Shown in pieces: positions 15,501-60,728 of a stretch of DNA of 64,000 bases. How positions within the stretch are numbered: position 1 is the first letter of the stretch; each line of letters starts with the position of its first letter. This DNA comes from Nitrosopumilus sp. (lineage in GTDB: Archaea > Thermoproteota > Nitrososphaeria > Nitrososphaerales > Nitrosopumilaceae). A program made the position numbers and the translations under genes. The DNA lies in NCBI GenBank assembly GCA_963662625.1, contig OY759726.1, positions 672,001 through 736,000 on the forward strand. Direction: 5' to 3'. The notes beneath the pieces were generated by a model. The model had not been told where the DNA came from. It made no database searches and was given only the letters and a program-made list of their open reading frames with translations.

Positions 15501-16835
15501 GTTCCCCGCAACGTCGGTCAGCGAGTCCTTGACGGTGACGGTCGCCGTGGCGCCCGTGCCCACCCCGTCGCCGTCAAACGTCAGGGTGAGCGTGTCGGTG
15601 CCGGAGCCGGCGACCGCGGTGATGCTCCTGTCATCCTGGTCGGCGGTGGTGCTGGTGTCGCCGTCGGCGTCTATCACCAGCGCGCCGAACGTGCCCGCGC
15701 CGGCCAGGACCCGCTCCTGGGACTTTATGGTTATCGTGTTGGGGCCCGAGACCACCATGTACTTGTCGTCCGTCTCGGCGCCTTCTGCCGGGTGGTCTGC
15801 GAGAGCCGGCCTCTGGCCGTCGGTCACTATCACGTTCAGCCGCGCGGCCGAGTCGTTCGCAGACGTCGCGTCGTCTGACACCACGCCTACGTTGAGGAGG
15901 CCCGTGGCCGAGACTTTCAACGCGGTGCCGGTCGCCAGCGTTAGCGTGGTGGTGCCGTTAAGATGGGTGGCGCCGTCGTTGGCAAGCGTCACTATCTTGC
16001 CGTCAATCCTGATGTTGGTATAGTCCTCAGCCGTATCGCTCGCGTCGGACAGGGTTTCGGACCATTTCACCTGGATCTTGTCGGTGCCCGTGACCGTGGC
16101 CGACACGACGTACGGGGCCTGGGCATCAATCAAATCCTGCTCGGGGACCGCGGCCAGCTCGTTCGTGGCAAGGTCGGCCACGCCGCCGGAGATGGCTATA
16201 GTCCCACTGGCCCCGGTCGAGGCCGGGGTGCCGTAGAAGGTTATGGTGTGCGTGTCGGTGCCGGAGCCCGAGAGCTTCATGATGTTCCTGGGCAGGTCAG
16301 TGGCGTTCTCGACGCCCTGGTTTATCTCCAGGGTGGTATAGTCGGTAATCTTTGCGACCACCCTCTCGTCGTACTTTACGGTGACCTTGTTCGGGCCGGT
16401 GACCGCGGTACCCGCGGCGACGACGCTGGGCTTGACGCCGTCGGTCGCCACGACGGACTCGTTGGTGTACGTCTCGGTGGCGTCGTCATCCAGGGCCACC
16501 GTGCCGGTGAGCCTCACGGTGGGCGTGGCGTCCGCGTCCAGCGCGTTGCCGGAGGGCAGGACCAGGGTCGCGGTGGCGGCGCCGTCAGAGTGGGTAATTG
16601 AAGCGGGATTCACGCCGTCGACCGTGAAGGCGGCCTGGCTGGAGGTCAGGTCATCCACGTCGGCCGCGAAGGTCACCGTCACCTGCAGGTTCGCGTCGAT
16701 GTTGTCAACGGAACCTCCGGTCTGCGCCCCCTTGAGGATGCTGTCGGGGGCCGTCTGCGCGAAGGACTCGCCTGCCAATGAGAAAGCGGACACCATTGAC
16801 ACCGCGAGTATCGCGAAGAGTACCGTGTTGTTCAT
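9570..16835 (-). CDS. Giant secreted/surface protein (2421 aa): tandem Ig-like repeats, LIV-type solute-binding domain, SdrD-B-like domains
   Basis: Signal peptide MNNTVLFAILAV...SFA; >12 repeats of (S/V)TGPNxxTVxFxExV...GSGTDTITLTFDG; VKVGLLL...GVPTSAS...SCCSTA...YAYSAYDAVW (type I periplasmic binding fold); GTVFxDxxxxGxxxxxExG repeats at the C-terminus. Confidence 0.85.
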   Translation of the reverse strand: MNNTVLFAILAVSMVSAFSLAGESFAQTAPDSILKGAQTGGSVDNIDANLQVTVTFAADVDDLTSSQAAFTVDGVNPASITHSDGAATATLVLPSGNALDADATPTVRLTGTVALDDDATETYTNESVVATDGVKPSVVAAGTAVTGPNKVTVKYDERVVAKITDYTTLEINQGVENATDLPRNIMKLSGSGTDTHTITFYGTPASTGASGTIAISGGVADLATNELAAVPEQDLIDAQAPYVVSATVTGTDKIQVKWSETLSDASDTAEDYTNIRIDGKIVTLANDGATHLNGTTTLTLATGTALKVSATGLLNVGVVSDDATSANDSAARLNVIVTDGQRPALADHPAEGAETDDKYMVVSGPNTITIKSQERVLAGAGTFGALVIDADGDTSTTADQDDRSITAVAGSGTDTLTLTFDGDGVGTGATATVTVKDSLTDVAGNVHALLAGDPVPAQVTDVAVYDGQAPTLVSAGITTANKVTVTFSEAMGGGTITATTGGVLTNITDFLVTGQRTASTLTSAAAHSSIPNAYDITFGSNDDVPPLASAPADSTGTISVGKGVLDSKGNPIVARSGVAVDASQRPAVKSIEITGPDQVTVVFTESVTAVQGDFNDLRIDGSATARTLSGISPGNGPSATYTLTFGGDKVGTGATATIDISKSVVDGATPPNAIGKVDIDNQPVSDGQRPEVELSITGPNQLTAEFTEPVIARMADFDGLTIGPTTGGEARKITGFAGSGSTYTMAFNGDPVADDATGYVDISGKVADRPAGNKFVVRDGDGAATEPVAGKYADVPVGDGQAPALESISITGPNQVTAKFSEAVKEPDGGDLKSAFVAFRLSDGNFRNINDVTSEPSASIKLTFGGTGVPTGTSGTVNVTGGIEDTSGNAFQVPSPPGYVNYAVKAGQIPTVLSAKVTGPNQLTVEFSESVSTFPGDYTDLRIDGSPTARAVTNVSTIAAAVELTFDGDPVGTDAVATVDIAGPIDNASPRNTLKPLQDKAVEDGQPPRVTVSITGPNQLTAEFTEPVATELADFDGLMIAAGTDSSNNVLYEDEARKITGFAGSGSTYTMAFDGDAVGTDATAKIDIMAGISDTSRGQNAFAGFSADGTKTPQTEGKFAGVPVSDGQAPLVLRGEFADANSIKIVYSEGVTANAVTSYPDLVFGANDNRDPAGGQFTTATHQLLFTGDDVDRSTTGVINNVTGVKDLADIALEAGSIKVEAMGDPTLLSARITGSDRVTVTFSEPVTASAADFTGLVVGDAVDPRNVTGAAGSGTDTITLTFDGPKAPVGTSGQMDVSDSIADLIGNALSPKTGYMVAAGQVPVLVSAAVTGPNQITVAFSEGVTAGASAFANLQLFPGGPRSVTAVSGSGTDTITLTFDGPAVSTAATALLDVTTGIVDNDGTAFVAVTGYRAEAGQPPALSSVTMSSDNQTNASQATVGDTVTLGFTASEAISLPAVTIDGNAADSVYNLTGNQWTASRVMQQGDTDGRLAFTIDYSDMDGNDGTRATATTDGSSVFYSNVGLSPLHVSSAVTGPNSVTVTFTEPVTASAADFANMTLIPGGVRNVTGAASAGSSVTVTFGGAAVPAYATASVTVGSGITDADGNMFAGPLNVAAADGQAPSLPFVGLASSNDDPGFATVGDTVTLSFTASEPISDPIVSMNGSTVQASNASGNQWTAARTFTDAASLGASITFSVDYADDSMNQGVRVVSTTDGSAVSTGQCPPGQEPHPYTSQCITPLAGNVKVGLLLSDAPEFKAEGQETILTSAKAVTDFNQWLADQGRDWTLVAPYQDNRIDGPTTLAQVQALKTEGVDVVLGVPTSASVSYVIDYVNANGMVLVSCCSTAESLAQPDNVFRMSPTSVAHAPILAQHIVDSGKNSLVIIYRDDTWGAGLLDVVTASYQARGGSVIAQVAYEPGTTDFADTAAAAQAAVQGRADLSGVGVLFLGWAELVNLSAAASTTDTLPSLTWFDSGINANTPRITIDATALAFATSTGMTSIQFKEQRTDKTVEVMEHVRENLGRDPTVYAYSAYDAVWVAGMAIDRAQSATGTDMLQHVPAVAASRTSGAIGPNALDANGDLALHNYNLWAVQGGAWKDLGTVSTPSVQGTVFSDADANGAKGALEAGIEADVTLFNGSTSYTSRSNAGGYYSFSDVAGGDWTVQVAMPATHVPSVGQSFFETVTVAAGATQTVDFALEPLSASNYATVTGTVFVDADGDGTRGSGEAGMAGYTMYAIDALSGQSVTATTGPDGTYAFDSIAPAPRLTLVQTGYFPPGHTLSTDAFYSYVTPERRAVETFDVGFYPVPQSERVSLSVTAYMDANANGIRDAGEAAFPGAQVQIYSYTINTIDAITTGDDGVATKTDLLPANWQAQAYPPAGYVATAPADPVTGVAGAYTAVDPAPGSSVTMLIGLAASP

Positions 16836-28436: not shown

Positions 28437-28509
28437 ATAGTTTGTTGCGCAACTCGGTTTTCAGGCACGGAAATAGCCTTGTGAAGACGGGTTCAGGCAG
28501 GGTTACGCA
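28437..28509. mobile_element. Miniature IS5-family TIR element, one end interrupted by IS110
   Basis: ATAGTTTGTTGCGCAACT resembles the IS5 TIR GTAGTCTGTTGCACAACT; the other end GGTTACGCA abuts the IS110 right end. Confidence 0.6.
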
Positions 28510-29340
28510 CCTATGTTAACCACCCAGGCGTAGTTGCCGCAATGTATCCCGTGGCTTTTCCGATCCGTGACTGGGTTGCACGGCATGGGATTCATGGCCA
28601 GCGCTGGCAGGACTGTCCGGGATGCGGGCAGCGCGTGGGGGTCACCCCCGGCGCGCCTTCCACGTCCTGGCCAGCGTGCACCGGCACGGCCTCTCGTTGC
28701 GGGACTAATAGGGCGTCCTGGTGGCCGGCATGTGCCGCATCATGGTGACAATCTTGTGGGCCACCATGATTATGGCCGGCCCGTGCCTGTCCGCGTGCCT
28801 CCGGCGCGCGGACGCGTGCGCGGCCTCCATCCTGGCGTCGTGCCGCACGGTCACGTCCGCGGCCCCGCGCATGGCCCAGCTGGCCAGGCTGCTGGGGTCG
28901 ATCTTCTTGATCCTCCCCGCGTACGGCCGGTTCCCCGACTGGCAGGCCGCCGGGCACGGCCCGGCCCACGACGCCGCCTGCCTTGGCCCCCTGGACCCCG
29001 GGGACGTCCCCTATCCCGGGGGCCATCAGCACCGCGGCGAGCGCGCCGGCGCCGGCCGTGCCGGCCGGCAGCCTCGCGTCACCGTTGTGGGCGGCCTCCA
29101 TCCCGGGGGCCCCCCGTCACGGAGATCTCCTCCGTCAGGTACCCCGCCTGCCGGGCGCGCCGGCCCGGGACCGCCCCGTCGCACGCGGAGCCCGGCCCCG
29201 CGGACTCCGGCTGCCCCCAGAGCCTTTTCGGAGTGCATGTCCGCGGCGTCCACCCGGGCGTCGTGGCGGCCTGGGAGGCTGCGGGCGCGGCCAAGTCTTC
29301 TTCACCTGCGTGGTCCACGTGCGGGTGCGCGGTCGCCGCA
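28510..29340 (-). pseudogene. Degenerate, 5'-truncated third copy of the IS110 element
   Basis: Right end CCTATGTTAACCACCCAGGCGTAGTTGCC and the 3' coding half align with 47427-48200, with frameshifts. Confidence 0.88.
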
Positions 29341-45999: not shown

Positions 46000-47426
46000 T
46001 ATTTCACCTCCCTTAGTTTCATATGTATTGTTACCCAAAATGCCTTTTAAGGAAAGCGGACAGTTGTGCGTGCTCCCTAGAGTGACGCTCACAAATAATT
46101 TCGCCTCCTGAATGGCCATACGGCAGCACGTCGCATGATCCGGCACGATCCACGGATTATGGCCCGGCCGTGCCGCTTGGAGTCCCTGCGCCCCAGCCTC
46201 CCCCGCCCACCGGTCGTGCTGGGCCGCCGTGGGCCTTACCCCCTGCACGATGTTCTCCCACCTGCGCGAGCGCGCGTGGTCCCCGGACGTCCCCTTGAAC
46301 GCCGACATGGTTATCCCGGTCGGCCGCCTCCTGCCGTACCCCTTCCTGGCCTCCCGGTACCGGGCATTCTCCTCCCTCTCCCTCGTGCCCGTCCTGCCGG
46401 CGCGCGCCTCCGGGCCGCCCCCCGGCCGGCCCCGCGCCGCCCCGCCCCACGCGCCGCCAGCGCCCCTGCCCCAGGCGGCGGGCGCCACCCTGGCCGGGAT
46501 GATCGGCCCCACGCCCATGCCGCGGCACCTCCGCACGTTGTCCCGCGACGCGTACGCCCCGTCCGCGATCAGGCGCGCCCCGCGGGGGCCGGGCGGCTGG
46601 CCGCACTGCAGCGCGAGCGGCGCCACGCCGCTCGCGGGGAGGTTGGGCGGGGGCGAGCCCGCGCGCGGCAGGGGATCCCCCGCCGCGGCGGCCTTCCCGC
46701 GGATCAGCGCCATGCGCCTGTCCTGCTTCCCGCCCTGCTTCCCCTCCTGCTTCCCGCCCTGCTTCCCGCCCTGCTTCCCCTCTTGCCGCTTCCCGTCACG
46801 CGGCCCCGCCACGGTTCCCAGGAGCTCCTTCAGCATGGGGGAGTCGCCCGTCCTGTCGTCGGTCACCACCGCCGCGGGCATCTTCTTCGTGTCGGCGTCG
46901 GCCAGCAGGTGCAGCCTGGCGAACCCGCGCCTCGCCTCCCGCTTCTTCCGTATCCACTCGCCCCGGTTGCACTGCTTCAGGCCGGTCGAGTCCGCCAGCA
47001 GGGTCATGGGCTGGCCGCCGCCGGAGACGCGGACGACTCCCCCGCCGATGCCCGCGCCGGGGCGCGCCATCCTCCTGGCCAGCACCGAGTAGTGCGGCGC
47101 GCCGCGCCCCCCCAGCATCCCCGCGAGGAGCCCGGACAGCTGCCTGTACTGGACCCCGAGCGAGGTCCTCACCGCGGCGGCGGCCATGACCAGCGCCCAG
47201 GCGTACCTGAACGGGGCGCCCTCCTTGCCGGCGTTGGCCTCCCTCAGGTCGTCCCCCGGCCGGGGCCATGCGACACCGCCAGGCCCCGCCCGCGCCTGGC
47301 GCATTTCTCGTTGTCGGTCGCAGCCAACGGGGACGGTGCGCGGCCGTGATCCAAGGCCTTTTCGGTTTGGCGTGGTTGGGCCCGGGGTTCAACTGTTCAG
47401 GCCCGGCAATTTCTGGCAGTTGTGCA

Positions 47427-48829
47427 CCTATGTTAACCACTCAGGCGTAGTTGCCGCAATGCATCCCGCGGTTTTTCCGATCCGTGACTGGGTTGCATGG
47501 CATGAGATTTATAGCTAGCGCTGGCAAGACGATCCGGGATGCGGGCAGCGCGGGGGGCCGCCCCCGGCGCGCCTTCCCCGTCCCGGCCAGCTTGCGCCGG
47601 CACGGCCCCTCGTTGCGGGACTCGTAGGGTGTCTTGGTGGTCAGCATGTGCCACATTATGGTGACCATCTTGTGGGCCACCACCATGATTGCCGGCCCAT
47701 GCTTGTCCGCGTGCCTCCGGCGCGCGGACGCATACACGGCTTCCATCCTGGCGTCGTGCCGCACGGCGGTGTTCGCGGCCTCGCGCATGGCCCAGTTGAC
47801 CAGGCTGCCGGGGTCGATCTTCTTGATCCTCCCCGCGTACGGCCGGTTCCCCGACTGGCAGGCCGCCGGGCACAGCCCGGCCCACGACACCATCTGCCTT
47901 GGCCCCCTGAACCTGGAGACGTCCCCGATCCCGGGGGCCATCAGCACCGCGGTGAACGTGCCGACGCCGGTCATGCTGGCCAGCAGCCTCGCGTCACCGT
48001 TGTGGGCGGCCCCCGTCCCGGGGAGCCCCTCCGTCACGGAGATCTCCTCCGTCAGGTGCCTCACCTGCCGGGCGCACTGGCCCAGGACCAACCCGTCGTG
48101 CCCAGAGCCCGGCCCCGCGGATTCCAGCTGCCCCAGGGCCTTTTCGGAGTGCATGGTGGAGGCGTCCATTTGGATGTCGTGGCGGTCCAGGAGGCTGCGG
48201 GCGCGGCTTGTCACGCGCGTCCTGTCCCGGGCCAGCCTCACCCTCTGCCTGACCATCGCGCGTATCCCCCTGGTGTGGCCCGGGGGGACGTAGCACTCCG
48301 GTATCATGTCCATCCCCGGCACCTGCGCTATCTTCTCTGCGTCAATCCTGTCGGTCTTCTTGGCGGTCCTGGCTATCAGGGCCATCTTGTACGTGTTGGC
48401 CAGTTTGATGCCGGTCCCGGCCGCCTCGAAGGCGTCAAACGTCTTGTTCCACATGTTGCCAGTCGTCTCGCAGGCGGCCCTGCAGGGGCCGCCGCCCAGG
48501 TACCTGCGCGCCATCACCCCTGCGAACTTCGCCGCGCCGTCCCGGGTGTTGGGGTACTGCCCCCTCTCGAGAACCTTCCCGTTCCCGTCCACCACGCACG
48601 CGCCGCGCTTTCTCTTCCCCATGCCTGTCCCTATGCTTGTCTTTCTCATCCTTTCCTATCACCTCCTTTCGGATGTCTGACGGATCGGAAGCTGCACACA
48701 CCTATCAGGGCGCGAAGCCCAGTGACACGGCAGCTCGGATTGCCCCATTCAACAGAAAGGGCGCCAGGCCCACGCGCTACCAGGGGTCGATCCATCGGGG
48801 CAACTACGCCTGGGTGGTTATCATGTGTT
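47427..48829 (-). mobile_element. IS110-family element copy 1 (1403 bp)
   Basis: Flanked by core TG on both sides; 22-bp sub-terminal IRs; ORF 47441-48649. Confidence 0.92.
47441..48649 (-). CDS. IS110 DEDD recombinase (first Asp mutated)
   Basis: SIGTGMGK, ACETTG, KTDRIDA, MTGVG, WAGLCP...QSG, VAHKM. Confidence 0.88.
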   Translation of the reverse strand: MRKTSIGTGMGKRKRGACVVDGNGKVLERGQYPNTRDGAAKFAGVMARRYLGGGPCRAACETTGNMWNKTFDAFEAAGTGIKLANTYKMALIARTAKKTDRIDAEKIAQVPGMDMIPECYVPPGHTRGIRAMVRQRVRLARDRTRVTSRARSLLDRHDIQMDASTMHSEKALGQLESAGPGSGHDGLVLGQCARQVRHLTEEISVTEGLPGTGAAHNGDARLLASMTGVGTFTAVLMAPGIGDVSRFRGPRQMVSWAGLCPAACQSGNRPYAGRIKKIDPGSLVNWAMREAANTAVRHDARMEAVYASARRRHADKHGPAIMVVAHKMVTIMWHMLTTKTPYESRNEGPCRRKLAGTGKARRGRPPALPASRIVLPALAINLMPCNPVTDRKNRGMHCGNYA

Positions 48830-55146: not shown

Positions 55147-55958
55147 TCCGCGTCTCGTTCCAGGGGGAGCGTGGCGCGTACAGCGAGGCTGCCGCAAGGT
55201 CGTTCTTCGGGGGGGAGATCGAGGCCGTCCCCACGCAGACGTTCGCCGAGGCCCTCGAGCGCGCCTCGTCCGGGGATACCGGCTACGCCGTGCTCCCGGT
55301 GGAGAACTCGCTGGAGGGGAGCGTGGGGGAGAGCTACGACCTGCTGTACCTGACGGACCTCAGCGCGGTGGGCGAGACGTACCACAGGATAGAGCACTGC
55401 CTGATCGGGACCGGCAGGCTGGGGGGCATCGGGACCGTGTACTCGCACCCGCAGGCGCTGGGCCAGTGCAGGGGGTTTATCGAGAGAAACGGCATGAAGA
55501 CAGTGCCCGCGTACGACACCGCGGGGAGCGTGAAGATGATAAAGTCGATCGGCCGGGAGGACGTGGCCTGCATAGCGAGCAGGGAGGCGTCCGGGATCTA
55601 CGGCGTCCCAGTGGTGGCAAGCGACATCGCGAACAACCCCAACAACTACACCCGGTTCCTGGTGCTGTCCGGGGGGGCCAGCCCGGAGACCGGCAGCGAC
55701 AAGACGTCGGTGATATTCTCCATAAAGCACGAGCCGGGCTCCCTGTTCAGGGTGATAGGGAGGTTCCACGCGAGCGGCGTGAACCTCACCAAGATAGAGT
55801 CCAGGCCGGCCGGGACGGACGCCTGGGAGTACATATTTTACGTGGACTTTGAGGGGCACGCCGACAGCCCCGGCATCGCGGAGATGCTCAGGGGACTGGA
55901 GGCGGACACGGTCTCCCTGAAGGTGCTCGGCTCGTACCCCTCGGCCAGGCGCGGCTAG
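55143..55958 (+). CDS. pheA: Prephenate dehydratase
   Basis: VSFQGERGAYSE, PVENSLEGSV, SHPQALGQC, NYTRF, NLTKIESRP. Confidence 0.95.
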   Translation: MIRVSFQGERGAYSEAAARSFFGGEIEAVPTQTFAEALERASSGDTGYAVLPVENSLEGSVGESYDLLYLTDLSAVGETYHRIEHCLIGTGRLGGIGTVYSHPQALGQCRGFIERNGMKTVPAYDTAGSVKMIKSIGREDVACIASREASGIYGVPVVASDIANNPNNYTRFLVLSGGASPETGSDKTSVIFSIKHEPGSLFRVIGRFHASGVNLTKIESRPAGTDAWEYIFYVDFEGHADSPGIAEMLRGLEADTVSLKVLGSYPSARRG

Positions 55959-56419
55959 AAGCCCCTGGGCCTCCTCAGCGTAAAGGCCGTGCTGAACCCG
56001 ATGATCACCACGCCGGACGTTATCACGATGATGTGGTAGGTGAACAGGATCGGGTCGGTGGTGATCTCGAAGGTGGCGTCCACCACCACGTCCGACGGGC
56101 CGGTGTTGCGCACGTTGATGTACGTGACGCCGTCCTGGGCGTGGCTCCATTCCTGGTAGGCCTCCCCCTCGAACGAGTCGGTGATGTCCAAGCCGCCGGC
56201 GGGGCTCTTGAGCACGAGCTCAAAGCTGTCGCCCGTGATCCCCATCTTCTGGGTGCCGCCCCGATCGGAGGTGACCTGGTACGAGGTGAACTCCCCCGGC
56301 CCGAGCGTGTCGCTGACCGGCACCACCTGGAGGCCGACGTCGGAGACGAACGAGAACACCCCGATGGCTATGATCCCTACCCCGATGATCATCCCGACGA
56401 CCGTCCACTTTGATATCAT
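55955..56419 (-). CDS. Conserved-type 2-TM hypothetical protein
   Basis: MISKWTVVGMIIGVGIIAIG...ILFTYHIIVITSGVVIIGFS...RRPRGF. Confidence 0.7.
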   Translation of the reverse strand: MISKWTVVGMIIGVGIIAIGVFSFVSDVGLQVVPVSDTLGPGEFTSYQVTSDRGGTQKMGITGDSFELVLKSPAGGLDITDSFEGEAYQEWSHAQDGVTYINVRNTGPSDVVVDATFEITTDPILFTYHIIVITSGVVIIGFSTAFTLRRPRGF

Positions 56420-56504
56420 GGTGTGGAGTCCCCGCGCGCCGCTTAAAAAACTAGCTCCGCGCGTAGTCTGTTGAACACATGATAACCACCCAGGCGTAGT
56501 TGCC

Positions 56505-56645
56505 CCGATGGATCGACCCCTGGTAGCGCGTGGGCCTGGCGCCCTTTCTGTTGAATGGGGCAATCCGAGCTGCCGTGTCACTGGGCTTCGCGCCCTGATA
56601 GGTGTGTGCAGCTTCCGATCCGTCAGACATCCGAAAGGAGGTGAT
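56505..56645 (+). ncRNA. Candidate bridge/seek RNA in the IS110 left non-coding end (boundaries approximate)
   Basis: TCTGTTG (56547-56553) equals target-left+core; ATAGGTG (56598-56604) equals donor-left+core; each follows a GGGC-N5-GCCC hairpin. Confidence 0.65.
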
Positions 56646-56653
56646 AGGAAAGG

Positions 56654-57862
56654 ATGAGAAAGACAAGCATAGGGACAGGCATGGGGAAGAGAAAGCGCGG
56701 CGCGTGCGTGGTGGACGGGAACGGGAAGGTTCTCGAGAGGGGGCAGTACCCCAACACCCGGGACGGCGCGGCGAAGTTCGCAGGGGTGATGGCGCGCAGG
56801 TACCTGGGCGGCGGCCCCTGCAGGGCCGCCTGCGAGACGACTGGCAACATGTGGAACAAGACGTTTGACGCCTTCGAGGCGGCCGGGACCGGCATCAAAC
56901 TGGCCAACACGTACAAGATGGCCCTGATAGCCAGGACCGCCAAGAAGACCGACAGGATTGACGCAGAGAAGATAGCGCAGGTGCCGGGGATGGACATGAT
57001 ACCGGAGTGCTACGTCCCCCCGGGCCACACCAGGGGGATACGCGCGATGGTCAGGCAGAGGGTGAGGCTGGCCCGGGACAGGACGCGCGTGACAAGCCGC
57101 GCCCGCAGCCTCCTGGACCGCCACGACATCCAAATGGACGCCTCCACCATGCACTCCGAAAAGGCCCTGGGGCAGCTGGAATCCGCGGGGCCGGGCTCTG
57201 GGCACGACGGGTTGGTCCTGGGCCAGTGCGCCCGGCAGGTGAGGCACCTGACGGAGGAGATCTCCGTGACGGAGGGGCTCCCCGGGACGGGGGCCGCCCA
57301 CAACGGTGACGCGAGGCTGCTGGCCAGCATGACCGGCGTCGGCACGTTCACCGCGGTGCTGATGGCCCCCGGGATCGGGGACGTCTCCAGGTTCAGGGGG
57401 CCAAGGCAGATGGTGTCGTGGGCCGGGCTGTGCCCGGCGGCCTGCCAGTCGGGGAACCGGCCGTACGCGGGGAGGATCAAGAAGATCGACCCCGGCAGCC
57501 TGGTCAACTGGGCCATGCGCGAGGCCGCGAACACCGCCGTGCGGCACGACGCCAGGATGGAAGCCGTGTATGCGTCCGCGCGCCGGAGGCACGCGGACAA
57601 GCATGGGCCGGCAATCATGGTGGTGGCCCACAAGATGGTCACCATAATGTGGCACATGCTGACCACCAAGACACCCTACGAGTCCCGCAACGAGGGGCCG
57701 TGCCGGCGCAAGCTGGCCGGGACGGGGAAGGCGCGCCGGGGGCGGCCCCCCGCGCTGCCCGCATCCCGGATCGTCTTGCCAGCGCTAGCTATAAATCTCA
57801 TGCCATGCAACCCAGTCACGGATCGGAAAAACCGCGGGATGCATTGCGGCAACTACGCCTGA
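56654..57862 (+). CDS. IS110 DEDD recombinase (first Asp mutated)
   Basis: Same protein as 47441-48649; GGAGGTGA SD-like sequence upstream. Confidence 0.88.
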   Translation: MRKTSIGTGMGKRKRGACVVDGNGKVLERGQYPNTRDGAAKFAGVMARRYLGGGPCRAACETTGNMWNKTFDAFEAAGTGIKLANTYKMALIARTAKKTDRIDAEKIAQVPGMDMIPECYVPPGHTRGIRAMVRQRVRLARDRTRVTSRARSLLDRHDIQMDASTMHSEKALGQLESAGPGSGHDGLVLGQCARQVRHLTEEISVTEGLPGTGAAHNGDARLLASMTGVGTFTAVLMAPGIGDVSRFRGPRQMVSWAGLCPAACQSGNRPYAGRIKKIDPGSLVNWAMREAANTAVRHDARMEAVYASARRRHADKHGPAIMVVAHKMVTIMWHMLTTKTPYESRNEGPCRRKLAGTGKARRGRPPALPASRIVLPALAINLMPCNPVTDRKNRGMHCGNYA

Positions 57863-57930
57863 GTGGTTAACATAGGTGCACAACTCGGCACGATCCCCGG
57901 GCCGTGGCCAGGCCGTGCCGCTTGGAGTCC

Positions 57931-59061
57931 CTACGCCCCCGCCTCACCCGCCCACCGGTCGTGCTGGGCCATCCTGAGCCTTGCCTCCTGCACGATGTTC
58001 TCCCACCTGCGCGAGTGCACGTGGTCCCCGAACATCCTCTTGAACGCCGATATGATTATCTCGATCAGCCACCTCCTGCCGTACCCCTTCCTAGCCTCCC
58101 GGTACCGGACGTTCTCCTCCCTCTCCCTCGTGCCCACCCTGCCGGCGCGCGCCTCCGGGCCGCCCCCCAGCTGGTCCCGCACCGCCTCGCCCCACGCGCC
58201 GCCGGTGCCCTTGCCCCTGGCGGTGGACGCCACCTTGACCGGGATGATAGGCCCCACGCCCATGTCGCGGCACCTCCGCATGTTGTCCCGCGACGCGTAC
58301 GCCCCGTCCGCGATCAGGCGCGCCCCGTGGGAGCCGGGCGGCTGGCCGCACTGCAGCGCGAGCGGCGCCACGCCGCTCGCGAGGAGGTTGGGCGGGGGCG
58401 AGCCCACGCGCGGCAGGGGATCCCCAGCCGCGGCTGCCTTCCCGCGGATCAGCGCCATGCGCCTGTCCTGCTTCCCCGCCGGCTTCCCGTCCGGCTTCCC
58501 GCCACGCGGCTCCACCACGGTTCCCAGGAGCTCCTTCAGCATGGGGGAGTCGCCCGTCCTGTCGTCGGTCACCACCGCCGCGAGTATCTTCTTCGTGTCG
58601 GCGTCGGCCAGCAGGTGCAGCTTGACGAACCCGCGCTTCACCTTCCACTTCTTCCGTATCCACTCGCCCCGGTTGCACTGCTTCAGGCCCGTGGCGTCGG
58701 CCAGCAGGGTCATGGGCTGGCCGCCGCCGGAGACGCGGACGACTCCCCCGCCGATGTCCACGTCGAGGCGCGCCATCCTCCTGGCCAGCACCGAGTAGTG
58801 CGGCGCGCCGTGCCCCCCCAGCATCCCCGCGAGGAGCCCGGACAGCTGCCTGTACCGGGCCCCGAGCGAGGTCCTCACCGCGGCGGCGGCCATGACCAGC
58901 GCCCCGGCGTACCTGAACGGGGCGCCCTCCTTGCCGGCGTTGGCCTCCCTCAGGTCGTCCTCCCAGCCGGGGTCATACGACACAGCCAGGCCCCTCCCGC
59001 GCCTGACGTATTTCTCGTTGTCGGTCGCAGCCAACGGGGACGGTGCGCGGCCGTGATCCAA
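57931..59061 (-). CDS. IS5-family DDE transposase
   Basis: PHYSVLARR, LADATGLKQCNRGEW, FVKLHL, ADGAY, YGRRWLIEIIISAFKRMFG. Confidence 0.88.
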   Translation of the reverse strand: MDHGRAPSPLAATDNEKYVRRGRGLAVSYDPGWEDDLREANAGKEGAPFRYAGALVMAAAAVRTSLGARYRQLSGLLAGMLGGHGAPHYSVLARRMARLDVDIGGGVVRVSGGGQPMTLLADATGLKQCNRGEWIRKKWKVKRGFVKLHLLADADTKKILAAVVTDDRTGDSPMLKELLGTVVEPRGGKPDGKPAGKQDRRMALIRGKAAAAGDPLPRVGSPPPNLLASGVAPLALQCGQPPGSHGARLIADGAYASRDNMRRCRDMGVGPIIPVKVASTARGKGTGGAWGEAVRDQLGGGPEARAGRVGTREREENVRYREARKGYGRRWLIEIIISAFKRMFGDHVHSRRWENIVQEARLRMAQHDRWAGEAGA

Positions 59062-59294
59062 GGCCTTTTCGGTTTGACATGGTTGGGCCGGGGGTTCAAC
59101 TGTTTAGACCCGGCAATTTCTGGCAGTTGTGCAACAGACTACCGCGCGATGCGTTCCCGGGAGGCGGCGCGGGGGGCCTGGGACCTGGCATACCTACCAC
59201 AGACACAGGAAACTAGCGGATCGATGTGGCTATCCACGGACTCGCACGTCAGTGTTACCCATGCCCAGTCAGAAAATCCTAGAAGCTGCAGGCC

Positions 59295-60728
59295 TTACAT
59301 CAGCGACACGTCGTGGGGCTGGCTTTCCGCGAACCCGGCCCTAGACATCTTGATGAACTCGGCGTTTGCCTGCATCTGCGGGATGGTGTGGGCGCCGCAG
59401 TAGCTCAGCCCGGAGCGGATGCCGCCCGTCAGCTGCTTCAGCATGTCGGTGACCGTCCCCTTGTAGGGGACCATCGCCTCCACGCCCTCGGCCACGTAGT
59501 CGTTGAGGTCGTCGTCAAGGGAGATCGTCCCGGTCTCCTTTGACTTCCTCCCGATGGAGGCCGCCAGGGACGCCATCCCGCGGTAGACCTTGAAGCGCTT
59601 TCCGTTCTTTGTCAGCACCATTCCGGGCGACTCGTCGGTCCCGCCCAGCATGCTCCCAACCATCACGCTCGAGGCGCCGGCTGCCAGCGCCTTCGTGGCG
59701 TCGCCGGAGTTCCTGGTGCCGCCGTCGGATATTATCGGGATGCCGCTGTCGTTGCCCACCCGGGCGCAGTCCACCACGGCGGTAAGCTGGGGCACGCCGG
59801 ATCCCGTGATGACGCGGGTGATGCAGATGGAGCCCGAGCCGACGCCGACCTTGACTGCGTCGACGCCAGCCTTGATCAGGTCGTCGGCCCCCCTGGCGGT
59901 GGCGACGTTCCCGGCAATCAGCTCGCAGCCGGGAAACGCCTTCTTTATGTTGCGCACGGTGTTGACCGCGTTCTCGCTGTGCCCGTGCGCAATGTCCACC
60001 ACCAGCACGTCCGCCCCGGCGTCCAGGATGGCCTCGGCCCTCTCCAAAAAGTCCCCCTTCACGCCGACCGCCGCCCCCACTAGCGGGCGGCCCTTCCCGT
60101 CCTTGGAGGCGGACGGGTAGTCCTCCGTGTTCGTTATGTCCTTGGACGTGACCAGCCCCCTCGCGACCCCGGAGTCGTCCACCAGCGGGAGCTTCTCGAT
60201 CCTGTGCTTGTGGAGGATGCGCTTCGCCTCGTCAAGGGAGATGCCCGGCCTGGCGGTGACGACGTCCTTGGTCATGACGTCCCTGATCGGCGTGTCCATG
60301 TTCGACTCAAGCAGCAGGTCCCTGGCAGTGACTATCCCCACCAGCTTGGAGTCAGAGTCGGTCACCAGGATGCCCGAGATGCCCTTGTCCGTGGCATAGT
60401 CGATCGCGTCCAGGATGGCCTTGTCCTGGCCTATGGAGTACGGGTTCTCTATCATGACGCTGCCGGATCGCTTGACCTTGAGTACCTCGCTTACCTGCTC
60501 CCTGATGGTCAGGAACCTGTGGATGATCCCGATGCCCCCCGCCCGGGCCATCGCCACGGCCATGGCGGACTCTGTGACGGTGTCCATGTTGGCGCTTACT
60601 AGCGGTATGTTGATCGAGATGTTCCGCGACAGCCTTGTGCTCAGGTCCGTCTGGGTGCGGCTGGTGATGTCAGAATACTTGGGGACTAGGAGAACATCGT
60701 CAAACGTCAACCCCTCCCTGAATTCCAA
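59295..60728 (-). CDS. guaB: Inosine-5'-monophosphate dehydrogenase
   Basis: GLTFDDVLLVP, SANMDTVTE, CBS pair, VGVGSGSICITR, YRGMAS, AEGVE; TTG start at 60728. Confidence 0.96.
   Translation of the reverse strand: MEFREGLTFDDVLLVPKYSDITSRTQTDLSTRLSRNISINIPLVSANMDTVTESAMAVAMARAGGIGIIHRFLTIREQVSEVLKVKRSGSVMIENPYSIGQDKAILDAIDYATDKGISGILVTDSDSKLVGIVTARDLLLESNMDTPIRDVMTKDVVTARPGISLDEAKRILHKHRIEKLPLVDDSGVARGLVTSKDITNTEDYPSASKDGKGRPLVGAAVGVKGDFLERAEAILDAGADVLVVDIAHGHSENAVNTVRNIKKAFPGCELIAGNVATARGADDLIKAGVDAVKVGVGSGSICITRVITGSGVPQLTAVVDCARVGNDSGIPIISDGGTRNSGDATKALAAGASSVMVGSMLGGTDESPGMVLTKNGKRFKVYRGMASLAASIGRKSKETGTISLDDDLNDYVAEGVEAMVPYKGTVTDMLKQLTGGIRSGLSYCGAHTIPQMQANAEFIKMSRAGFAESQPHDVSLM

Follow-up and report, generated by a model that had tools for sequence, protein, structure and literature searches.

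What is encoded in the 5′ non-coding end of an archaeal IS110-family element that has inserted into another insertion sequence? The question is raised by positions 56505-56626 of a 64,000-nt stretch of Nitrosopumilus sp. DNA (the window), which lie within the 5′ non-coding end of an IS110-family element of 1403 nt (56474-57876) with the core dinucleotide TG. A model given the letters of this region (the original prediction) had described two tandem units, each a hairpin followed by a guide, as the target and donor modules of a bridge or seek RNA: TGGGC-CTGGC-GCCCT-T-TCTGTTG at 56531-56553 and, 51 nt on, TGGGC-TTCGC-GCCCT-G-ATAGGTG at 56582-56604. The letters of both units were confirmed by script. 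We conclude, with a probability of roughly 90%, that an IS110-family insertion sequence of a Nitrosopumilaceae archaeon has its bridge (seek) RNA encoded at 56505-56626. The conclusion is carried by the fold, by the covariation of all four guide segments with the flanks or ends of the element, and by the insertion point and core, each of which is observed directly. The predicted type of gene is thus borne out by an IS110 transposase, a covarying fold, and guides that track flanks and ends, and the locus is a new example of an RNA-guided recombinase system described in 2024, rather than a new kind.

The RNA scaffold

Relatives of the transposase were collected by searching relatives' genomes, and one genome for each species, at the protein level (the latter set gave 79 loci, 32-65% identity). 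They come mostly from Nitrosopumilaceae and Nitrososphaerales, with a few from Bathyarchaeia and Methanosarcinales, and in all of them the region upstream of the transposase alternates between conserved and variable blocks. Five helices were proposed for this region, and the fold was tested on an alignment of 26 relatives. In this alignment 94.9% of helix cells are paired and 14 of the 28 pairs have compensatory changes; the observed value on all five measures was reached by none of 500 shuffles, and controls with slid helices were 28-50% paired. RNAalifold, run on the same alignment without a supplied structure, returned the same five helices. A single-sequence fold of the left end was also tried, but it was no better than those of shuffled sequences (z = -0.70) and paired the guides with each other, and the comparative structure was preferred.

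The fold is a closed three-way junction, encoded on the forward strand, in which a closing stem (P1) holds two arms, each consisting of an internal loop with a basal stem and a 4-bp capping hairpin. P1 has 9 bp (56507-56515/56616-56624), 6 of which have changed on both sides, and is among the helices recovered independently by RNAalifold. The first arm is the target loop, with the basal stem P2 (56517-56520/56557-56560; seen in the comparative alignment and by RNAalifold) and the capping hairpin P3 (56532-56544; compensatory changes in three of four pairs). The second is the donor loop, with the basal stem P4 (56567-56573/56608-56614; nearly invariant, also found by RNAalifold) and the capping hairpin P5 (56583-56595; compensatory changes in all four pairs). 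The arms are 6 nt apart. The units that had been described as free-standing hairpin-plus-guide modules are, then, internal loops in which guides flank the hairpin on both sides, each loop having a basal stem of its own.

The two capping hairpins are nearly identical, and the likeness is greater within an element than between elements. For the 36 unique pairs drawn from the 60 of 87 rows (matches to the model described below) with 13-nt hairpins, the stems agree at 6.56 of 8 positions (permuted, 5.68 ± 0.13) and the loops at 3.28 of 5 (permuted, 2.43 ± 0.15), and in neither case did any of 10,000 permutations reach the observed value.

A covariance model of the scaffold (R1) matches 56505-56626 over its full length with 132.2 bits. 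It has 87 matches in 92 sources and 13 in the window's own genome, and at E ≤ 1e-5 it is found in 6 of 151 sampled genomes of the phylum, the source genome included. In the window, and in all of the 87 matches that lie beside such a gene, the RNA is upstream of the transposase gene. With filters off, R1 gave no match at E ≤ 1 in any of four distant IS110 loci (three haloarchaeal and one from Sphingobium, at about 30% protein identity, taken from plasmid hits), and Rfam 15 had no match at E ≤ 1 over 55900-58200. Two close transposase relatives were found on short contigs binned as bacterial, one labeled Gemmatimonadales (L105) and one Kaiserbacteria (L091); the former matches the RNA model at 48 bits. 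Mis-binning or transfer is the likely cause of these labels.

A conserved scaffold of this kind might act as DNA instead, either as a folded single strand or as a set of protein-binding sites, with the guide-like matches described below made through DNA-DNA pairing or protein contacts. No RNA run was found to contain the stretch, and the left end does have a subterminal inverted repeat, which is a possible protein-binding site. The helices, however, are rich in G-U pairs of the sort typical of RNA (G-U in 25 of 26 relatives at the pair 63/110, U-G in 11 of 26 at 5/119), the fold is given by one strand only, and homologous systems, as described in PMC11187229 and PMC11208160, act through an RNA that copurifies with the protein. 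We regard a DNA-level role as highly improbable.

Insertion site and core

The seven nucleotides immediately left of the element (56467-56473, forward strand) are TCTGTTG, which is the left target TCTGT followed by the core TG, and they form the tip of the IS5-like terminal repeat that hosts the insertion. The element body (56474-57876, forward strand) is followed by a second copy of the core at 57877-57878, so that the right junction at 57872-57878 reads ATAGGTG, the element's final 5 nt (the left donor, ATAGG) plus TG. The right target, CACAACT (57879-57885), continues the terminal repeat. The rest of the interrupted IS5-family element occupies 57879-59142 on the reverse strand, with a transposase open reading frame (ORF) at 57931-59061, assigned to the IS5 family by protein-family models, and an intact far terminal repeat at 59126-59142. 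This far end is the reverse complement of GTAGTCTGTTGCACAAC, which places the IS110 element between the TG and the CA of the IS5 terminal repeat.

The genome consists of one contig of 1.86 Mb and has eight full-length copies of the IS110 element at 87-100% identity (denoted c0 to c7, c0 being the copy at 56474-57878), in addition to fragments. For each copy, the flanks were joined into an empty-site string that was searched for in the same genome. For c0 there are 17 uninterrupted paralogous sites, in which the junction is spanned as ...TCTGTTG|CACAAC...; c1 and c2 have 15 each, and c3 and c4 have one or two each, in repeats resembling miniature inverted-repeat transposable elements (MITE-like repeats). 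The strings of c5 to c7 had no uninterrupted site in the genome. The TG is single in an empty site and stands at both junctions of an occupied one. It is common to target and donor and is covered by the guides, and nothing of the target beyond it is duplicated.

The left non-coding end is 180 nt long (56474-56653) and holds the RNA. The right end is short: the ORF of c0 enters the right repeat, and about 135 nt follow the stop codon in the intact copy. The subterminal inverted repeat has a left arm at 56472-56514 and a partner arm at 57838-57880, with arms of 43 nt that are 81% complementary, and such repeats are present in the relatives as well.

Guide segments and their covariation

The four loop strands were cut from the model alignment for all 87 matches, and 73 rows were usable (14 were dropped because the left end was not found or a guide was incomplete). 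Element ends were set without reference to the guides, the left end by a conserved A-N4-ATG/GGG motif and the right end by the reverse complement of the left subterminal repeat together with a conserved end motif. The 73 loci have 52 distinct guide combinations.

The left-target guide, TCTGTTG, lies on the 3′ side of the target loop (56547-56553) and has the same sequence as the top strand of left target and core, and therefore pairs with the bottom strand. Among 48 unique pairs of guide and flank, the mean match outside the core is 4.02 of 5, compared with 1.60 ± 0.16 for permuted pairs (reached in none of 10,000 permutations). Twenty of the 48 match at 7/7, with 20 different 7-mers, and 18 match at 6/7. 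The right-target guide, GGTAGCGCG, is on the 5′ side of the same loop (56522-56530) and pairs with the core and right target. Its match outside the core is 5.29 of 7 (permuted, 2.50 ± 0.23; none of 10,000; 31 unique pairs), and it is perfect (9/9) in three rows (L081, L085, L118) and 8/9 in ten.

The limits of the target guides are sharp when viewed position by position, extending from -7 to -1 for the left-target guide and from the core to +6 for the right-target guide. Left-target identity is 0.70-1.00 at positions -7 to -1 and 0.17 at -8; T at -2 is found in all 69 unique left-flank pairs (identity 1.00), and the identity of G at -1 is 0.99. The target is thereby defined as 13 bp, comprising 5 nt, TG and 6 nt.

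In the donor loop, the right-donor guide GTGT (56575-56578) pairs with the ACAC found at positions 2-5 of the left end of the element. Across 19 unique pairs it forms 3.0 of 4 Watson-Crick pairs with these positions (permuted, 1.9 ± 0.2; none of 10,000), and it passes through the compensatory states GTCT/AGAC, GCTT/AAGC, AAAG/CTTT and GTAT/ATAC. The left-donor guide, ATAGGTG (56598-56604), has the sequence of the element's right end followed by the core. This guide has few variants (ATAGGTG, ATAGATG, ATGGATG) and mostly tracks the right end, its first five nucleotides matching at 4.67 of 5 (permuted, 4.06 ± 0.18; 7 of 10,000; 12 unique pairs). Covariation is thus clear for the right donor, while that of the left donor is seen on little variation.

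These results uphold the assignment of the first unit to the target and the second to the donor, since the loop segments covary with flanks and element ends, respectively. They likewise uphold the reading of TCTGTTG and ATAGGTG as left-target-plus-core and left-donor-plus-core guides, the per-position limits giving exactly 7 target nucleotides. The check proposed with that reading, a comparison of the 7-mers with the flanks of homologues, came out in its favor, because elements with other targets have other 7-mers that match their own flanks. The right-side guides fared differently, although both hexamers lie where they had been placed. TGTGCA (56605-56610), which had been taken to complement the core and right target, is not a guide: its GCA starts stem P4 and is invariant in 26 of 26 relatives whatever the target, the rest is the tail of the loop, and the real right-target guide is the segment at 56522-56530. 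For GTGTCA (56575-56580), the first four nucleotides do covary with the left end, and the remainder is not part of a guide. By eye, the variable triplet 56605-56607 showed no consistent pairing with the right target, the left end or 56579-56581, and the positions beside the right-target guide that would correspond to the handshake of IS621 showed no consistent pattern.

The covariation also bears on whether the structure might be no more than a 5′ leader controlling how the transposase is translated, with the guide-like matches left over from a resemblance between element ends and target. Part of the leader may well regulate translation, since a GNRA-tetraloop hairpin of 3 bp (TCC-GAAA-GGA; 56630-56644, forward strand), kept in many relatives with a GAAA, GTAA or GCAA loop, overlaps the Shine-Dalgarno-like box GGAGGTGA before the transposase start; from its sequence and position, this hairpin may control translation of the transposase. 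A leader, however, gives no reason for loop segments to change in step with the flanking host DNA, as is seen in the 20 different left-target 7-mers that match their own flanks in full and in the right-target guides that track the right flanks, and we find this explanation less probable still than a DNA-level role. That the two 7-mer matches in the window arose by chance has a negligible probability: each 7-mer alone occurs in about 0.8-0.9% of 200,000 mononucleotide shuffles of the 180-nt end (TCTGTTG in 1,558, ATAGGTG in 1,846, in agreement with the original estimate of about 1%), but the two occur together in 16 (about 1 in 10,000, their shared position in a repeated scaffold not yet counted), and dozens of relatives follow the same rule with other sequences, so that chance is already refuted by the covariation.

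Two side observations concern possible promoters. A TATA-like box candidate lies in the A/T-rich subterminal repeat at 56479-56487, about 26 nt before P1. In the right end, the A/T-rich box CTATAAAT (57784-57806; box 57790-57798) is present only in the three least-mutated copies, the others having CCATGAAT; it could be a candidate archaeal TATA box that reads out across the junction of a circle.

Observations that weigh against a bridge RNA

Several observations do not fit easily with a bridge RNA at this locus, or limit the force of the evidence. The compared elements are kin, so that the permutation p-values overstate their independence; a stronger argument is how many distinct words match. 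Transcription and recombinase binding are predicted here from DNA alone. Ten of the 48 unique left-target pairs match at 5/7 or fewer. In c0 itself, the right-target guide agrees with its own site at 5 of 9 positions (7 of 9 with G-T wobble; mismatches at +2 and +4) and fits the MITE-like sites of c3 and c4 better (7/9), and the fit of guide to flank differs among the copies of the source genome. The right flank of one relative (L076) misfits its guide by eye, in a row left out of the count because its right end was found only with four mismatches. The decayed copy c6, which has two in-frame stops, has target guides (TGTATGGTG and CGCCATG) that misfit its flanks (3/9 and 2/7, respectively). 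Copies c3 to c7 have the left-donor guide ATGGGCG, yet their right ends are ATAGGTG or ATGGGTG; the simplest explanation is the A>G/T>C decay described in the last section. Finally, the transposase of c0 is without its first catalytic Asp, as discussed below.

The guides of the decayed copies have some further peculiarities. A second set of target guides (TGTA[C/T]GGTG with CGCCATG or GCGCATG) is found in decayed copies, in a mosaic with the first set (genome positions 1699627-1701050, 1230064-1230184 and 15918-16003; L007, L013 and L019). In c6, each guide strand complements the other, and the left-target guide resembles the copy's own right flank (CGCCA), which by eye is like a diverged IS5-type repeat (8/12). 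Neither a swap of flanks nor an inversion fits the guides of c6, and conversion of the loop after insertion is the likeliest origin.

Transposase and proposed mechanism

The element's only protein is an IS110-family transposase, encoded in c0 by an ORF of 402 aa (56654-57862, forward strand). It matches the Pfam families DEDD_Tnp_IS110 (2.2e-17) and Transposase_20 (1e-16), and the NCBIfam model NF033542, "IS110 family RNA-guided transposase", with 192.6 bits (cutoff, 140). Among solved structures, ISCro4 (4.5e-05) and IS621 (7e-05, Tnp domain only) are matched equally weakly. In the least-changed copy, c2 (genome 1194284-1195705), the ORF has the family's motif IGIDIGK and a stop at codon 364. 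Relative to c2, both c0 and the second copy in the window (c1) have 44 A>G or T>C changes and no others. These include the change of Asp9 to Gly, in a motif that reads IGTGMGK in c0, and loss of the natural stop at codon 364, which gives the ORF its length of 402 aa.

Asp11 of IS621, the equivalent of the lost residue, is described as essential (PMC11208158), and c0 is therefore probably moved in trans, its mobilization most likely depending on the single intact copy, at another place in the genome. The two window copies have identical changes at every aligned element position and are at different sites, which points to recent movement, the protein presumably having come in trans. The RNA gene of c0 is intact, with one change in a linker. 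Among A/T sites, the RNA region is less mutated than the ORF both in c0 (1/74 compared with 41/384, p = 0.007) and in the most decayed copy (17/74 compared with 168/384, p = 0.0007).

By homology with IS621, ISEc11 and ISEc21, the molecule would act as a recombinase-bound RNA, and the chemistry would be as in those elements. The RNA would load onto recombinase dimers, as described for IS621 and seekRNA elements (PMC11208160, PMC11208158, PMC11187229). The target loop would then hold the 13-bp target, namely the tips of IS5-family terminal repeats of the type TCTGT-TG-CNCNAC, and the donor loop would hold the abutted ends of the excised circle (ATAGG-TG-AACAC), with GUGU pairing with positions 2-5 of the left end. 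In this arrangement, the DEDD/Ser recombinase and its RNA would juxtapose circle ends and target, and strands would be exchanged at TG.

Comparison with known systems

The archaeal element resembles IS621, of the IS110 group, in several respects, as IS621 is described in PMC11208160 and PMC11208158. In both, the RNA is upstream of a DEDD/Ser recombinase, in the left end, and has two pseudo-symmetric internal loops (stem, guide, stem-loop, guide), one for reading the target and one for reading the donor; pairing in each loop involves both DNA strands, and a shared core dinucleotide falls within the pairing. By the same accounts, the two differ in the order of guides in each loop, which is reversed here (top-strand guide 5′, bottom-strand guide 3′), and in the core, which is TG here and CT in IS621. 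IS621 RNA is described as having a 5′ stem-loop and a flexible linker, whereas here the 5′ and 3′ ends are brought together by a closing stem, which makes a three-way junction with a 6-nt linker, the capping hairpins are nearly identical, and the subterminal repeats are long. Protein similarity is marginal, as noted above.

The order of guides is that of the IS1111-family seekRNAs (ISEc11, ISKpn4 and ISPa11), in which, according to PMC11187229, the top-strand match is 5′ of the bottom-strand match. Long subterminal inverted repeats and an overlap of the two matches in the target are further points of likeness given there. The RNA of the IS1111 group is described as lying downstream of the gene for the transposase, within the right end, unlike the present one (PMC11187229). 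The same source lists exceptions, namely ISMtsp17 as well as ISHvo10 and ISAcp5, which have long regions on both sides, and these rare IS1111 members with an upstream region suggest that the mixture of traits seen here is probably not unprecedented. Another partial parallel is ISEc21, of the IS110 type, which is described as having its non-coding region upstream and its target within another insertion sequence, but with the bottom-strand match 5′ of the top-strand match and no long subterminal repeat (PMC11187229); its relative ISMch6 is given there as a case of natural retargeting.

The locus has the features that characterize IS110 bridge or seek RNAs in the broad sense: a non-coding end, two capped loops, covariation with both flanks and both ends, and a core dinucleotide common to target and donor. 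Taken against the narrower definition of the IS110 group, it has the long left end with the RNA and the short right end, but the guide order is reversed and the arms are 43 nt long, compared with a subterminal repeat of only 2-3 bp. Taken against that of the IS1111 group, it has the subterminal repeats (7-17 bp or more) and the 5′ position of the top-strand guide, but the RNA is not downstream. Guide order and long subterminal repeats therefore resemble IS1111, and the upstream RNA resembles IS110. IS4321 and IS5075, of the IS1111 family, are said, in the title of a report, to have subterminal inverted repeats and to insert in the terminal inverted repeats of other transposons. Unlike the archaeal element, they are reportedly bacterial, with Tn21-family repeats as targets.

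The archaeal clade might represent a third bridge-RNA configuration, defined by upstream position, IS1111-type guide polarity, long subterminal repeats and a rigid closed three-way junction. We offer this as a tentative and rather unlikely interpretation. Under it, a rigid 122-nt molecule with two arms 6 nt apart and co-evolving, near-identical hairpins could by itself hold both target and donor; in the synaptic complex of IS621, as described in PMC11208158, the two loops come from two RNA molecules. If true, it would provide a smaller scaffold with a different geometry for engineering. The architecture as such is the published one, and the novelty that the original prediction implied is not supported. 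None of the 15 papers listed by a literature search joins "bridge RNA" with thaumarchaeal names, and the supplementary tables of PMC11208160 and PMC11187229 may list such elements.

The field has already mined millions of candidate loci (PMC13604230). What the present loci contribute is a well-supported, naturally retargeted set of bridge RNAs with sharp guide limits, from ammonia-oxidizing and other archaea. They indicate that the traits used to separate IS110 from IS1111 (RNA position, guide order and length of subterminal repeats) can combine in a mixture. For engineering, a compact 122-nt scaffold with two near-identical, putatively protein-binding hairpins is a candidate to try. The sites into which they home are terminal repeats of IS5-family elements and of MITE-like derivatives of these, and they thus parasitize other mobile DNA and not host genes.

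Other copies and their surroundings

A second IS110 copy in the window, c1 (47425-48829, reverse strand), has its bridge RNA at 48677-48798 and lies in the other end of an IS5-like element. A third is 5′-truncated, extending over about 28489-29291, with only its right end present (28508-28521, reverse strand). Immediately to the left of c2, the only intact copy, a tandem duplication of the 15-nt sequence CCTAATAGTCTGTTG, which ends in the left target and core, is found at genome positions 1194240-1194283 (L003).

Contigs from four public runs of one study, over 55900-59300, had no joint of the IS110 ends and none crossing the element, rare forms being invisible in contigs. In one contig, from run X3, the IS5-like element's right end (59142) is connected back to the left end of that element (56463), which would fit either tandem IS5 copies or an IS5 circle. 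In Haloarcula marismortui, a distant IS110-family relative on pNG500 (64291-66724; L143) adjoins an annotated IS5-family transposase gene. This neighborhood hints that homing into IS5-type elements may extend beyond the present clade.

One-directional decay of the copies

The eight IS110 copies (window 56474-57878 and 47425-48829; genome 1194284, 476448, 1063440, 1699627, 1508686 on the reverse strand and 18727 on the reverse strand) are set apart almost exclusively by A>G and T>C transitions, which form a one-directional and largely nested series. Relative to c2, the 44 such changes in c0 and c1 are accompanied by no reverse or other changes; c3 has 89 (no reverse, one other), c7 has 186 (11 reverse, 15 other) and c5 has 199 (2 reverse, 9 other). 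The changes in c5 include all 44 of those in c0 and 88 of the 89 in c3. The direction follows from what has been lost, namely conserved residues, the start codon and the stop codon.

The IS5-like copies (57879-59142 and eight others in the genome) give ratios of A>G/T>C to G>A/C>T of 52:5, 65:7 and 20:2, with the lowest-GC copy as reference, a choice that itself favors the A>G/T>C direction. In the IS110 series, the decay might come from a mutation bias that strongly favors A:T>G:C in DNA not under selection, with a class of sites that can become saturated, or else from a process directed at repeats or at copying. The phenomenon may perhaps be more unusual than the bridge RNA itself. Along the series, GC content climbs from 63% to 78%. 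Both strands are struck about equally, and changes are far more frequent at an A before G or C than at one before A or T.

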